A stretch of DNA of 64,000 nucleotides from a virus (Duplodnaviria; Caudoviricetes): IMG/VR virus record IMGVR_UViG_3300002220_000189, positions 32,001 to 96,000 of that record, one strand, 5' to 3'. A program made the translations under genes and the position numbers. The first letter of the stretch is position 1. Each line of letters begins with the position of its first letter. Of the stretch, positions 5,931-32,204 are shown in pieces. A model generated the notes under the pieces. It was not told the origin of the DNA. It searched no databases and saw only the letters and a program-made list of their open reading frames with translations.

Positions 5931-6092
5931 ATGATTGATAGGTATAAGTTGCAAGTTAAATGTCCTTGGTGTGCTTGGTGTGCAGAGGTTGAGCTAATTA
6001 TTAACGCACCAAAAGAAGCAGTTGACGATGCATCTAAGTTATTAGGTTATGAAATGCAAAAGCATTGGGATATTAGAAAACATGCTTTATGA
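5931..6092 (+). CDS. Small hypothetical protein (53 aa, CPWC...H...H, possible Zn finger)
   Basis: Manual translation MIDRYKLQVKCPWCAWCAEVELII...HWDIRKHAL; fills the gap and overlaps the MTase start. Confidence 0.5.
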   Translation: MIDRYKLQVKCPWCAWCAEVELIINAPKEAVDDASKLLGYEMQKHWDIRKHAL

Positions 6093-8157
6093 AGGTGATT
6101 GTTTAGACATAATGCTGACGTTAGAAGCTAATTCAGTAGATTCGATAGTAACAGATCCGCCTGCTGGTATATCATTTATGGGAAAAGAATGGGATAAAAA
6201 TAAAGGTGGTAGAGATAACTGGATTAAGTGGATGGAAGAAATTGCAATAGAATGCTTACGGGTTATCAAACCTGGAGGGCATGCTCTTGTATGGTCTATT
6301 CCAAGAACTTCTCATTGGACAGCAACGGCATGGGAGAATGCAGGATGGGAACCAAGAGATAAAATATATCATTGCTTTGGAACAGGATTTCCTAAATCGT
6401 TAGATATAAGTAAAAATCTGGATTCATTTGCTAAAAAAAGATGGTTTGATATAAATAAAGGTATAGATAATTTAGATAAAGGAGCTATACTTGAATTATG
6501 GAAAAGAGACTTAAACAATGTGAAATTTGTGGAGCAATTATTTCCAAAGAATATAATAGAAACTGGAATGAGTATAGAAAAAAACGATTTTGTTCAAGAA
6601 AATGTTCTGCTCAAAATCAATATAAAAAAATATTATGTAGATGCGATAATTGCGGAATTGAATTTTATAGATCAAAATCACATACAACAGGAAAAAAATC
6701 AATATATTGTTCAAGAGAATGCAGAAGTAAACATAAAACAATTACAAAACAATGTGAAATTTGCGGTAAAATTGTTACCAAACCTATATCAAATACTATT
6801 GAAAGCAAACATTTTTACTGTGGAATACAATGTTCAGGATTTGCTAAACGAAAACACAATTATACAGAAGAAAGTAGAAAAACACCTGAAAACTATATAT
6901 GGCGAACCACAATTATTAAACAATCAAACAATACTTGTATTATGTGCGGAGATAATAGAAGACTTGAAGTTCATCATATTAAACCTTTCTCCGTATTTCC
7001 AGAATTTAGATATGACATCTCAAATGGAATGTGTGTCTGCCACCGATGTCATTATTACAGAATACATGATGGAAAACCTAATTTTAAACATGGTAAATAT
7101 TCTAAAAAATAATGCTCTTATCAAATCTAAAGGTGCTGAAAGAAAAATCGTAGGAAAGATAACTGAAGGTAGAGCAGCAACACCTAGACAAGATATAAGA
7201 GGCGGGAAGTTTCATGCCTGTTCTGAGGGTGATACAAGAGGTTATGATGGAAGTAATATAACAGCACCATCAACAGAAGAAGCCAAACAATGGGATGGAT
7301 GGGGGACAGCACTAAAGCCAGCAGTAGAAGAATGGTGGTTATTTCGTAAACCATTAAGAGGAACAGTTGTAGAAAATGTTTTAGAACATGGTATTGGCGG
7401 ACTGAATATAGATGGTTGTAGGGTGGAAACAGCTCCTGATGATATACCTGGTTGGCATAAATCTGGAGCAAAAGGATCAGATGGTTACATGAATACAGAT
7501 ACGTTCAAAATTCGGAACATGACAGCAGAAGAAATACAGGAACGATGTGGCGGAAAAGGTCGTTGGCCAGCCAATCTTATCCATGATGGTAGTAATGAAG
7601 TGGTAGGGTTGTTCCCAAATACTGGTAAATCTGCTGGTGGTAAATCAGGACACACAGCCGCATATTGCGGTGGTTATAAAGAAGAATATTACGGTGATTT
7701 GAAGCCCGGCTATGGTGATAATGGTTCTGCTGCCCGTTTTTTCTATTGTGCAAAAGCATCAAGAGAAGAAAGAGAAGCTGGATGTGAGAATTTACCCGGA
7801 AGAAAAATGGATGAGAGTAGAAAAGAAGGTAATCCCGGAGGTGATAATCCAAGAAATAGAGGAGTTACCGAATATAAAAATCATCACCCGACTGTCAAAT
7901 CCTTAGAACTTATGCGATATTTATGTAAATTAATAACGCCTCCAAAAGGGATTGTTCTTGATCCGTTTATGGGTAGTGGAACAACAGGTATTGCTTGTAA
8001 ATTAGAAGGTTTTGATTTTATTGGAATTGATTTAGATCCAGAAAATGTTTCAATAGCAGAAGCTAGAATAAACCATTGGGAACATGTTATGGAAAAGAAA
8101 AAGAAAAAGAAAATAAAAAATAAAAAAGAAGTAGAAAATCCATTTTTGAAAGGGTGA
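6082..8157 (+). CDS. Beta-class amino DNA methyltransferase with a ~233 aa in-frame insertion (~6424-7122)
   Basis: LYEGDCL, VTDPPAG, GTGFPKSLDISK, GWGTALKPA, GRWPANLIHDGS, HPTVK, LDPFMGSGTTG. Likely start at ATG 6082; the ORF is open from 6049. Confidence 0.88.
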   Translation: MLYEGDCLDIMLTLEANSVDSIVTDPPAGISFMGKEWDKNKGGRDNWIKWMEEIAIECLRVIKPGGHALVWSIPRTSHWTATAWENAGWEPRDKIYHCFGTGFPKSLDISKNLDSFAKKRWFDINKGIDNLDKGAILELWKRDLNNVKFVEQLFPKNIIETGMSIEKNDFVQENVLLKINIKKYYVDAIIAELNFIDQNHIQQEKNQYIVQENAEVNIKQLQNNVKFAVKLLPNLYQILLKANIFTVEYNVQDLLNENTIIQKKVEKHLKTIYGEPQLLNNQTILVLCAEIIEDLKFIILNLSPYFQNLDMTSQMECVSATDVIITEYMMENLILNMVNILKNNALIKSKGAERKIVGKITEGRAATPRQDIRGGKFHACSEGDTRGYDGSNITAPSTEEAKQWDGWGTALKPAVEEWWLFRKPLRGTVVENVLEHGIGGLNIDGCRVETAPDDIPGWHKSGAKGSDGYMNTDTFKIRNMTAEEIQERCGGKGRWPANLIHDGSNEVVGLFPNTGKSAGGKSGHTAAYCGGYKEEYYGDLKPGYGDNGSAARFFYCAKASREEREAGCENLPGRKMDESRKEGNPGGDNPRNRGVTEYKNHHPTVKSLELMRYLCKLITPPKGIVLDPFMGSGTTGIACKLEGFDFIGIDLDPENVSIAEARINHWEHVMEKKKKKKIKNKKEVENPFLKG
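6450..6457 (+). promoter_or_regulatory. T4-type late promoter (TATAAATA) inside the MTase insertion, upstream of the nested HNH gene
   Basis: Exact TATAAATA 40 nt upstream of the HNH ATG; AAGGAG at 6479-6484. Confidence 0.65.
6498..7112 (+). CDS. HNH homing endonuclease with repeated Zn-binding modules, overprinted within the MTase gene in another frame
   Basis: Three CxxCG...(F/Y)CxxxC repeats, then CIMCG...LEVHHIKPF...DISNGMCVCHRCH. Confidence 0.9.
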   Translation: MEKRLKQCEICGAIISKEYNRNWNEYRKKRFCSRKCSAQNQYKKILCRCDNCGIEFYRSKSHTTGKKSIYCSRECRSKHKTITKQCEICGKIVTKPISNTIESKHFYCGIQCSGFAKRKHNYTEESRKTPENYIWRTTIIKQSNNTCIMCGDNRRLEVHHIKPFSVFPEFRYDISNGMCVCHRCHYYRIHDGKPNFKHGKYSKK

Positions 8158-29776: not shown

Positions 29777-32204
29777 TTAATATTACCTGGCTATAACCAT
29801 TTATTTTATTTACCATATATACAGTGTCAATTTCTAAGTTAGTGATTTCACTTCTATGAGTTATTAAAAATACTTTACTATTATCTTCTCTTTGTTTAGA
29901 ACGAATTATTTTTAGTAAATTATGTAATCCTGATGCGTCAATAGAAGAATCTAATATCTCATCGAATATTATTATATCAGGAAATATAGCCGCTTGTAAA
30001 CGTAAAATATCTAAAAATGCTAATTGTAATGCTAAGTCAATACTTCTTGCTTCACCACCGCTCAAATTACCGTATGAGCAATTTGTAATACCAGGTCCTA
30101 ATATTTCTTCTTCTAACCAACCAGTAAATTTTAAATAAAAGTTACATCCACCTTCAGCCAAATAATGATTTACCTGTTTCGTCAAAAATGGCATAATTGA
30201 TGATATTGCAAATTGTTTTACATTTTCATCTTTACATAATAATTTTATTTGTTCAAGATAATCAATTATATTATTAAATTTATTTACTTTTTCTACATCT
30301 TCATCAATCTTTTCTATTATTACCTTGATGTTACTTTCTAAATCATAAATATTTCTTGATATTTCATCATTTACCTTATCCTCAAATAATACTTTTTCCC
30401 GTAAAGTTTGTAATTTGTTATTCAGTTCATTCAATAATTTCAATTTTCCTACTACAACACCATATTCATTATTTAAAATACTTAAAACTTCCTTATCATT
30501 AGAAATTTCAGAAGTTATATCTTTCAATCTATTATTCATTTCCATAATAATATTTTGGATTGTTAATAAACTATCTTCTAATTCTTTAATCTCCAAACTG
30601 AAATCCCTATATTCTTCATATTTTATACATTCATTTTTAATGTCTATAATTTCTTTGATAATACTTTTCAAGGTTTCTATTTTAGTACTCAAAACGTCTT
30701 TATTCTGTAACATATACTGAAGTTGTTCGGTATAATATTTAATATCATTATCAATTTTTAAAATATCTTCCTTTAAATTAGTAGCTTGTTCGGTAAAAGA
30801 AGAAGAAAAGCCATTAAATGATATTATAGAACCACAAGTGGGACAAATATCTTTACCTTTTAGATTATCAAGTTTTTTTATTATTTCATCATAATGTTTT
30901 TTATTACTATATCGTTTACCATTTAGAATACTACATTTTTCTTTCATATTATCAATTTCATTACAAAGTATTGATAATTCTGACATCAACAATGAAAGTT
31001 CAATATTCAACTTATCTGATTCGCCATATTCTTTAATTCTATTATTATATAAATCAAATGCTTTTATATACTTATCCGCATTTTCCTTCTTTTTTCGCAT
31101 ATCATGAATTTTAAAATTAATATTTTCTTCTTTTGTAACACTAATACTTTTACTTATTTCTAATGTTCCTTTTCTTGTCGTATTCTTTTCTATTGATTGT
31201 TTTAAGTCATAAATTTTATCGTCAATAAGACGTAAATCTTCTTCTGTTACATCAATATCATTAATTTTCTTTATAATACCATCCATTTCTTTCTTTGATG
31301 ATATCATATTACGTTGTTTATCTTTTAATTGAGTTAATTGAAATTTTAATTCATCAGATTTCTTCTCATTATATCTAATTTCTATATTAAGTTCGTGTAT
31401 TTTGTTGTTTATAACATTAAGTTTTTCATTTGATTTTTCATTGATTTTAGTGTATATATTCAAACCAAACACTCTTTCCAAAAATGCTCTTTTTTTCTGA
31501 GTATCCATTTTTAGTATAGGTGTTAAAGTATTGAGATTTGTATGTACTATGGATACAAATGTATTAAAATCAATATCTAATATTTCAGTTTCTAATTGTT
31601 TTTGATATAATCTAACATCAGATAATGGTGGAATTGGATCATTATTACGATATATTTCCAATTTATCAGGTTTTATTCCTCTTATTATAGTAAATATATC
31701 GTTATTTTTTTTAAATCTTATTTTGACTTCACAATTTTTACGATTTTTCCAATTTACTATTTGTTCTTTCTTAACACTTCTATTCAATTTACCAAAAAGT
31801 GCAAATGTAATAGGTTCAAGACATGAAGAATTATGTGAAAGAATACCGTTTGAATAGTACTGTTCTACTTCTTCCACTTGAATATCATATAATGTATATT
31901 TTAACGGAAGTTTATAACATTCTATAACTTGTTCATGGCCTTTTTTAGTTTGAATATTGTTTGATATTTTTAGATTTTTTACAAACACCCAATTACCATA
32001 TTCATCTTTTACTCTGTGATCAGGAGAACAGATAAGAGAAAATGATAGTGTTTTCAATAAAAATGATTCTGCATTTTTTTCAATAATTTCACAAGCAATA
32101 ATTCTTTTATTTCCATATGGCGTATCCACATATATTGATCCGATATGTTCAGGAAATTTTTTGTAAAATTTATAAATTTTAGATATTGTACAGGTTACAT
32201 TCAT
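29763..32204 (-). CDS. gp46: C-intein (125 aa, 31830-32204) + C-terminal part of gp46 (SbcC/Rad50-like recombination ATPase)
   Basis: CSPDH block B, YDIQV...YYSNGILSHN|SSCLEPITFALFGK, CPTC hook, LSGGE, IIIFDE, LITH. Confidence 0.92.
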   Translation of the reverse strand: MNVTCTISKIYKFYKKFPEHIGSIYVDTPYGNKRIIACEIIEKNAESFLLKTLSFSLICSPDHRVKDEYGNWVFVKNLKISNNIQTKKGHEQVIECYKLPLKYTLYDIQVEEVEQYYSNGILSHNSSCLEPITFALFGKLNRSVKKEQIVNWKNRKNCEVKIRFKKNNDIFTIIRGIKPDKLEIYRNNDPIPPLSDVRLYQKQLETEILDIDFNTFVSIVHTNLNTLTPILKMDTQKKRAFLERVFGLNIYTKINEKSNEKLNVINNKIHELNIEIRYNEKKSDELKFQLTQLKDKQRNMISSKKEMDGIIKKINDIDVTEEDLRLIDDKIYDLKQSIEKNTTRKGTLEISKSISVTKEENINFKIHDMRKKKENADKYIKAFDLYNNRIKEYGESDKLNIELSLLMSELSILCNEIDNMKEKCSILNGKRYSNKKHYDEIIKKLDNLKGKDICPTCGSIISFNGFSSSFTEQATNLKEDILKIDNDIKYYTEQLQYMLQNKDVLSTKIETLKSIIKEIIDIKNECIKYEEYRDFSLEIKELEDSLLTIQNIIMEMNNRLKDITSEISNDKEVLSILNNEYGVVVGKLKLLNELNNKLQTLREKVLFEDKVNDEISRNIYDLESNIKVIIEKIDEDVEKVNKFNNIIDYLEQIKLLCKDENVKQFAISSIMPFLTKQVNHYLAEGGCNFYLKFTGWLEEEILGPGITNCSYGNLSGGEARSIDLALQLAFLDILRLQAAIFPDIIIFDEILDSSIDASGLHNLLKIIRSKQREDNSKVFLITHRSEITNLEIDTVYMVNKINGYSQVILNDNL

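Follow-up and report, generated by a model that had tools for sequence, protein, structure and literature searches.

The methylase gene and its nested HNH frame

The window considered here is a 64,000-nt stretch of DNA with a GC content of 27.7% (positions 32,001 to 96,000 of the IMG/VR virus record IMGVR_UViG_3300002220_000189, Caudoviricetes), and it contains a DNA methyltransferase (MTase) gene that holds, within an in-frame insert, a complete HNH endonuclease gene in another reading frame (Table 1). The MTase open reading frame (ORF) has the motifs DPPAG, close to its N terminus, and FMGSGTTG, towards its C terminus; it matches PF01555 in Pfam and has solved relatives in the PDB, namely DpnA, CcrM and M.RsrI. 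The nested ORF lies at -1 relative to the MTase, the MTase frame being the HNH frame +1, and matches the HNH family PF01844 (E 6e-7, Pfam); it has invariant Cys, His and Asn residues. The AlphaFold (AF2) model of the HNH protein has a predicted local distance difference test score (pLDDT) of 85.7, with GVE2 HNH (5H0M) as the best PDB match; the Foldseek matches were weak and confined to the HNH core, and a sequence search of the PDB with the HNH profile gave none. An intact 204-aa zinc-finger/HNH frame had been proposed in a sequence-only reading of this DNA, together with about 233 extra MTase codons between DISKNLD and KSKGAERKIVG. Both proposals hold, the former by the Pfam match and the zinc ribbons, the latter by alignment with insert-free homologues.

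In these homologues the host sequence reads ...GFPKSLDISKAID|KAAGAEREV..., while in the window it reads ...LDISKNLD, 233 codons and then KSKGAERKIV.... The coordinates 6424-7122 are right because the insert-free homologues join SKAID directly to KAAGAERE; an ambiguity of three codons stems from an xID repeat present at both junctions. The same junctions are found at the nucleotide level in a pair of invaded and uninvaded alleles, the loci L033 and L034, whose flanks are 89-95% identical. The host segment LDISKAID occurs threefold, at the left junction, in diverged form within the 74-nt leader that precedes the HNH ORF, and as SKAID at the right junction. The HNH stop codon, TAA at 7110-7112, lies immediately before the right junction, and in the relatives it abuts the resumed host codons or lies a few bases inside them. 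A mycobacteriophage methylase (supplementary file 4 of PMC9957025, before Mantra_64) has SKAIDK followed at once by about 100 aa of unrelated in-frame sequence, which suggests that this position tolerates insertions in general.

Table 1. Coordinates of the methylase gene, its insert and the signals within it (window numbering)
Feature	Positions	Strand	Description
DNA methyltransferase ORF	6049..8157	+	beta-class N6/N4, PF01555; 702 aa; open through the insert
Likely MTase start	6082	+	ATG; 691 aa; start position in homologues
Left junction	6409..6423	+	S-K-N-L-D codons of the host; first copy of its SKxID segment
Insert	6424..7122	+	233 codons, missing from insert-free homologues (homologue comparison)
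Leader segment	6445..6471	+	F-D-I-N-K-G-I-D-N, diverged second copy of host LDISKAIDK; holds the -35 element
Late-promoter-like motif	6450..6457	+	TATAAATA; present in the window, not conserved in relatives
-35-like hexamer	6464..6469	+	TAGATA (most relatives TTGACA)
AAGGAG	6479..6484	+	spaced 13 nt from the HNH ATG; relatives do not conserve it
-10-like hexamer	6486..6491	+	TATACT (most relatives TATAAT); follows the -35 at 16 nt and precedes the HNH ATG by 6 nt
Nested HNH endonuclease ORF	6498..7112	+	204 aa; several CxxC zinc ribbons and a C-terminal HNH motif
HNH catalytic core	6936..7067	+	HNH residues 147-190
Right junction	7114..7125	+	A-L-I-K, where host AIDK resumes

Stop avoidance in the window and in its relatives

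Across the 615 nt of the HNH ORF the MTase frame is free of stops, while the third frame contains 31. When synonymous codons were resampled from the codon usage of the window, a stop-free MTase frame arose in 5e-5 of the trials (mean 6.9 stops), and when the ORF's own codons were permuted among equal residues it arose in 1.4e-3. The +1 frame of the other long window ORFs has 0.09 stops per codon, and its longest open run is 121 codons. The avoidance is visible in the codons themselves: the HNH ORF has 16 NTx codons with a purine next to them on the 3' side, and not one of these is NTA, against 39% in the other window ORFs, whereas each of its eight NTA codons is followed by a pyrimidine. The sequence-only reading had claimed both that the HNH codon choice avoids MTase-frame stops and that NTA is confined to positions before pyrimidines, and the synonymous shuffles and codon counts confirm it. 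The overlap is coding in two frames, and stops are counterselected in the one that belongs to the methylase.

Nested alternate-frame HNH genes were also sought in other phage methylases and were found at the same site. Among 70 distinct sense-oriented loci, with a GC content of 28-64%, the MTase frame is open across the insert in 69: in 22 of 22 loci from viral contigs, a genome bin, protein look-ups and GenBank, and in 47 of 48 further distinct loci from a metagenome scan by HNH protein, which carry no bias toward open MTase ORFs because they were found through the HNH protein. All five insert-bearing homologues found via the methylase have the nested HNH, and the 16 viral contigs, one genome bin and one GenBank phage found by the HNH-protein search all have the MTase frame open. 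In the viral contigs a single HNH query gave one distant locus and a profile of five HNH proteins was needed for more; megablast of the locus against GenBank phages gave no match. Own-codon permutation in the relatives gave P0 values of 0.0007-0.1 for each of 20 sequences.

The relatives include the Escherichia coli phage BUCT618 (OM735461.1; L025:2995-3600), in which a 201-aa nested HNH lies unannotated within the MTase coding sequence UOK17941.1 (36396-38258 of the record). A separately called HNH homologue of more than 50% identity was found only once among 5.8 billion proteins (P0121), in a locus with a split methylase. In the locus L076:566-2533 (metagenome contig Ga0172367_10069518) both the MTase and the HNH frame are rich in TGA under translation table 11 and have no stops under table 25 (TGA=Gly), with the TGA codons at conserved Gly positions; L076 is counted among the 47 open metagenome loci on the strength of table 25 alone. 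The view that L076 is a decayed copy was rejected, as it is intact under table 25, and it looks like a phage of a Gracilibacteria/SR1-type host carrying the element. In L005:1631-2392, L052, L060, L067, L070 and the antisense class described below, the HNH protein is about 250 aa long through an extra N-terminal zinc-ribbon repeat (about 50 aa), and the host frame stays open across this repeat too. A frameshift fusion of the N-terminal part of the MTase to the HNH was likewise rejected, because in the loci examined a stop closes the HNH frame 1-10 codons upstream of its conserved ATG.

Inteins, too, require the host frame to be open, and the question arises whether the insert is removed by unrecognised RNA splicing, by ribosomal bypass or by atypical protein splicing, the open frame being needed just for removal. 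A host-like segment is repeated at both junctions (SKxID ... SKAID), the ends of the insert are predicted to be helical and could pair, and the authors who described the ShiLan domain, a methylase insert of mycobacteriophages, leave the possibility open (PMC9957025, PMC11855218). However, the MTase-frame insert has no Pfam domain and no Hint/intein domain, and its junction residues vary among the relatives, with no conserved Cys, Ser, Thr or His-Asn and no Cys/Ser...His-Asn pattern; the features of an intein (Hint blocks, an N-terminal Cys/Ser, and a C-terminal His-Asn followed by Cys/Ser/Thr) are lacking. The ribozyme core that surrounds the endonuclease ORF of a group I or group II intron is lacking as well, since an Rfam search at E<=10 found no intron and the non-HNH sequence within the insert amounts to just 74 nt before the ORF, taken up by a promoter-like signal, and 10 nt after it. 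The absence of intein motifs and the shortness of the flanks for a group I core had been pointed out before, and both observations stand. Furthermore, RNA splicing or a 699-nt bypass would exert no selection for a stop-free frame. In the AF2 model of the MTase with its insert the core has a pLDDT above 85 and the insert residues 120-155 and 262-362 are helical (pLDDT 60-88), whereas the middle of the insert, residues 158-260, is disordered with a pLDDT below 40, which also speaks against removal. On this balance we consider it very improbable that the insert is taken out of the RNA or the protein.

Pairwise differences in the overlap peak at the third HNH codon position (0.44, against 0.28 at the first and 0.23 at the second), and the best-conserved MTase-frame stretch of the insert (...FQNLD.TSQMECVSA...) lies exactly over the DNA of the HNH catalytic motif. 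Therefore it is the HNH frame that carries the sequence constraint, and the selection demonstrated on the MTase frame in the insert is stop avoidance alone; this phase of overlap has no doubly synonymous sites. The same two patterns argue against the explanation that the peptide read in the MTase frame is a functional domain, e.g. a DNA-recognition or regulatory module, to which the HNH ORF is secondary. Such a domain would fit the helices predicted for the C-terminal 100 residues of the insert (pLDDT 60-86), the coding-like variation of the leader in the MTase frame (position 3 > 1 > 2) and the conservation of HNH-synonymous sites, which exceeds that of the saturated flank sites. Nevertheless, the insert peptide is without a domain match, the leader is conserved because the promoter hexamers lie there, and most members of the methylase family do without the insert, so that we hold this explanation to be the least probable of those weighed here. 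The MTase flanks are under purifying selection, with dN/dS values of 0.03-0.37 that include one invaded versus uninvaded pair, and the MTase catalytic motifs are invariant.

Expression signals, mobility and split relatives

The sequence-only reading had assigned the HNH gene a late promoter, TATAAATA, which is of the T4 type, and an AAGGAG at the rather long spacing of 13 nt. Both are present in the window, but as expression signals neither is conserved in the relatives; what is conserved instead is a sigma70-like -35/-10 pair of the form TTGACA-N16-TATAAT-N6-ATG. A promoter score of at least 9/12 was obtained in 13 of 21 loci (62%), against 0.4% of 775 control ATGs, and the exact 16/6 geometry recurs in 30 of 36 further loci, with an exact TTGACA in 23 of these and an exact TATAAT in 18. 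The -35 element is located in the duplicated host codons A-I/L-D-N, and synonymous positions of the MTase frame are fixed to suit the hexamers (CTT/ATT-GAC, ATA). As six bases separate the -10 from the ATG and the canonical start would be its A, a leaderless HNH mRNA is predicted, a view to which we incline at somewhat better than even chance. The lambda cI mRNA made from PRM is leaderless. In the window phage only, ribosomes could use the AAGGAG to initiate internally on the long MTase mRNA.

The distribution of the insert is patchy. It is present in 44 of 135 methylases, always between SKxID and KAAGAERE, and on a tree built from the flanks alone this distribution needs at least 14 state changes, eight of them forced by well-supported branches; the window MTase falls in an otherwise insert-free clade. 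Distances between inserts and between flanks correlate weakly (r2 0.19), and some inserts are 92-100% identical despite saturated flank dS (L009/L011, L017/BUCT618, the latter at 95%, and L019/L021). In the pairs L009/L011 and L017/BUCT618 the nucleotide identity falls off upstream of the insert and drops sharply past the HNH stop. From these alignments we read the near-identical inserts and the identity gradients in the flanks as a homing signature; a patchy distribution together with inserts much younger than their flanks points to homing.

The HNH genes of L008 and L011 are 55-65% identical in the 5' half and 98-100% identical in the 3' half, so that a recombination breakpoint lies inside the HNH cassette and the element is mosaic between lineages. 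The 127-kb virus record holds two further HNH genes outside the window, at 7563-7697 (+) and 98810-98935 (-) of the record; their open frames, of 176 and 224 aa, are free-standing between genes and neither is nested.

The same HNH family also occurs at the same site in antisense orientation, in eight distinct loci (L004:1-1890, L071, L077/L078, L080, L081, L087, L088 and L090) in which the MTase is split into two ORFs. The N-terminal half carries a conserved tail of about 25 aa (...EKxIKDALAxKGxTxVVW...) and the C-terminal half a conserved head (M..V.ERI.IE.DG....ERLEDGTF.KPDYLAGAEREVVG), and the antisense HNH keeps a promoter, TTGACA/TTGCAT-N17-TATAAT, 6-7 nt from its ATG. The codon-aligned antisense frame of the HNH has no stops in six of the eight loci and one in each of the other two, where 1.5-6.7 would be expected; it forms an ORF of 260-280 codons on the MTase strand (e.g. 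L004:501-1277(-), L080:2474-3286(-) and L071:518-1360(-)) that is in frame with neither MTase half and may provide anti-polarity read-through. In a further locus, L094 (931-1557; 1484-2422), two HNH genes lie in one MTase. The first is nested and leaves the host frame open; the second, a free-standing sense gene for a 208-aa zinc-ribbon/HNH protein, follows ...VAQKPK, at the ShiLan site or close to it, and splits the MTase, whose downstream half begins with an adaptor-like head (MEKHTIIYKGKPLEIEQLPNGKFRKPD...).

Split halves of the methylase thus appear viable, because the antisense form exists with a conserved tail and head, and this raises the possibility that the sense-oriented methylase does not function as one chain either: it would be made as two halves, with a restart after the HNH, or be a decaying pseudogene, and its open frame would merely avert polarity or Rho termination and so keep the DNA downstream expressed. 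The split of the L094 MTase at a second site is in keeping with this. The sense form, however, has no conserved start codon or adaptor head before the C-terminal part, and its HNH stop abuts host codons; both flanks are under purifying selection in the same frame, and 69 of the 70 alleles consist of one uninterrupted ORF. A methylase that is nonfunctional as a single chain is, in our judgement, very improbable.

Taking both orientations together, we tentatively suggest, as a possibility that we hold to be rather less than even, an orientation-flexible, self-contained homing unit with its own consensus promoter and a leaderless mRNA, which would spare its one target site in two ways. In sense orientation it would be overprinted, with the host translated through three copies of its target helix, and in antisense orientation it would split its host into halves with adaptor peptides while keeping a stop-free antisense frame. 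If true, endonuclease genes would have in stop-free overprinting a general way into coding DNA on which selection can act, even in a phage with TGA=Gly.

Proposed mechanism and comparison with known systems

We propose that the insert is probably a hidden HNH homing element of the ShiLan type, which is read through rather than removed from the RNA or the protein. A compact cassette, comprising its own promoter, the 204-aa zinc-ribbon/HNH gene and a stop abutting host sequence, would have entered the variable region of an orphan DNA methyltransferase of a phage, where the conserved helix ...PKSLDISKAID ends, and would stay in RNA and protein without removal. The stop-free MTase frame would let ribosomes read through to give a methylase with about 233 extra residues, which would retain its activity, and the HNH would probably be made separately, at a low level and leaderless, from the internal sigma70-type promoter. 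When phages with and without the insert infect the same cell, the HNH would cleave the insert-less allele at the conserved SKAID/KAAGAERE site, and repair would copy the cassette in. The mechanistic reading of this DNA, with an overprinted homing-type HNH in a tolerated loop, is well supported at the level of sequence comparison, and the central claim of the sequence-only reading, that the HNH is overprinted in an in-frame insert which is neither an intron nor an intein, survives the comparative data (69 of 70 frames open, patchy distribution, young inserts, flanks under purifying selection).

Several observations weigh against this interpretation. One sense relative, L074, has a stop in the MTase frame (TAG at 895-897) together with an intact HNH. 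The fourfold sites of the HNH show more conservation than expected (0.55 against 0.34; for the flanks 0.29 against 0.25), but the recent spread of the insert confounds this comparison; for the MTase frame in the overlap the pseudo dN/dS is 0.3-1.0, in an insert much younger than its flanks. The window hexamers are weak (9/12), and in the AT-rich DNA of the window such matches are not above chance frequency; the case for the promoter rests on conservation in the relatives, and its consensus is of the sigma70 type, which the hosts may not use. As to L074, its contig is 1.4 kb long, and its TAG may be a sequencing error, a recent mutation or the mark of a pseudogene.

The layout itself has been published in the same methylase family. 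The ShiLan domain is a 202-aa insert in a mycobacteriophage methylase whose host frame is stop-free (Gosselin et al. 2023, PMC9957025; Arsenault, Gosselin and Gogarten 2025, PMC11855218), with an HNH hidden in the third frame that starts at a GTG 18 nt in and stops in the last four bases; it has no intron or intein, shows a disjunct distribution, has been proposed to be translated leaderless and has been modelled as a hairpin-like structure set apart from the methylase (PMC9957025, PMC11855218). The kinship of the hosts is seen in the supplementary sequences of PMC9957025, where PopTart_63 reads ...PKSLDVSKAIDKAAGAKRE...GWGTALKP..., and 371 Mycobacterium phage records match the C-terminal part of the window MTase. 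The two elements share a stop-free insert of about 200 aa, an HNH stop at the very 3' end, the lack of intron and intein signatures, a disjunct distribution with inserts less diverged than their hosts, a host segment repeated at the insert edge, an insert predicted as a poorly ordered helical excursion, and a proposed leaderless translation.

They differ in the site and in the nuclease. According to the supplementary proteins of PMC9957025 the ShiLan and Mantra inserts lie after ...GTALKPS, and the ShiLan site, ...GTALKPS|FEPVVVARKP..., comes about 65 residues later in the methylase than SKAID|KAAGAERE, where the window insert lies. The HNH motif of ShiLan is central (residues 93-134 of 195), whereas that of the window HNH is C-terminal, after the zinc ribbons, and tblastn of the window HNH against Mycobacterium phages gave no match at E<=1e-3. 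In place of the GTG 18 nt in, the window gene starts at an ATG 74 nt in, behind the conserved sigma70-like promoter. The window lineage is also much more widespread: it comprises at least 70 distinct alleles, whose carriers are environmental phages together with an E. coli phage and one that uses code 25, while about 10 alleles are known from mycobacteriophages. The window element therefore has what marks the ShiLan kind, i.e. a patchy, young insert at one site with an open host frame, an alternate-frame zinc HNH and no intron or intein, and lacks what would make it a ShiLan domain proper, an orthologue of the ShiLan gp65 insert, namely the same site and a homologous insert. Since ShiLan shares the layout and differs in site and HNH, we describe a new member of a published kind and not a new class, and the suggestion of the sequence-only reading that the element belongs to an undescribed class has to be given up.

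With respect to the published kind, the conserved promoter signal, the threefold copy of the target helix, the antisense splitting sister form and the copy in a TGA=Gly phage are new here. The non-spliced, out-of-frame endonuclease lifestyle extends beyond the mycobacteriophages: another lineage, which occupies a different site in this methylase family, is common among uncultured phages that span a wide range of GC contents. BUCT618, with its unannotated nested gene, offers in a cultured E. coli phage a tractable system for read-through, methylase activity, leaderless expression and homing. There is also a lesson for annotation, as gene callers hide nested nucleases such as the window HNH.

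Among solved structures, GVE2 HNH (5H0M) and the Gme HNH nicking endonuclease (4H9D) come closest in fold to the nuclease core, a beta-beta-alpha-metal HNH with a zinc site; just the C-terminal 85 residues or so align with them, and by sequence no solved counterpart was found for the N-terminal zinc-ribbon array. Inteins and group I introns that carry homing endonucleases share with the window element their population biology, namely a conserved target, a patchy distribution and horizontal spread between diverged alleles, and differ from it in that the window element has no splicing module and its endonuclease is encoded in a frame other than that of the host-frame insert. Some free-standing homing endonuclease genes split their target gene, as does mobE in nrdA of the Aeromonas phage Aeh1. 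Like them, the window HNH is a homing-type gene that brings its own expression signals and lies in a conserved gene with neither intron nor intein, and its antisense relatives at the same site split the MTase into two ORFs; unlike them, it leaves the host gene of the window unsplit, since the nuclease is overprinted in another frame.

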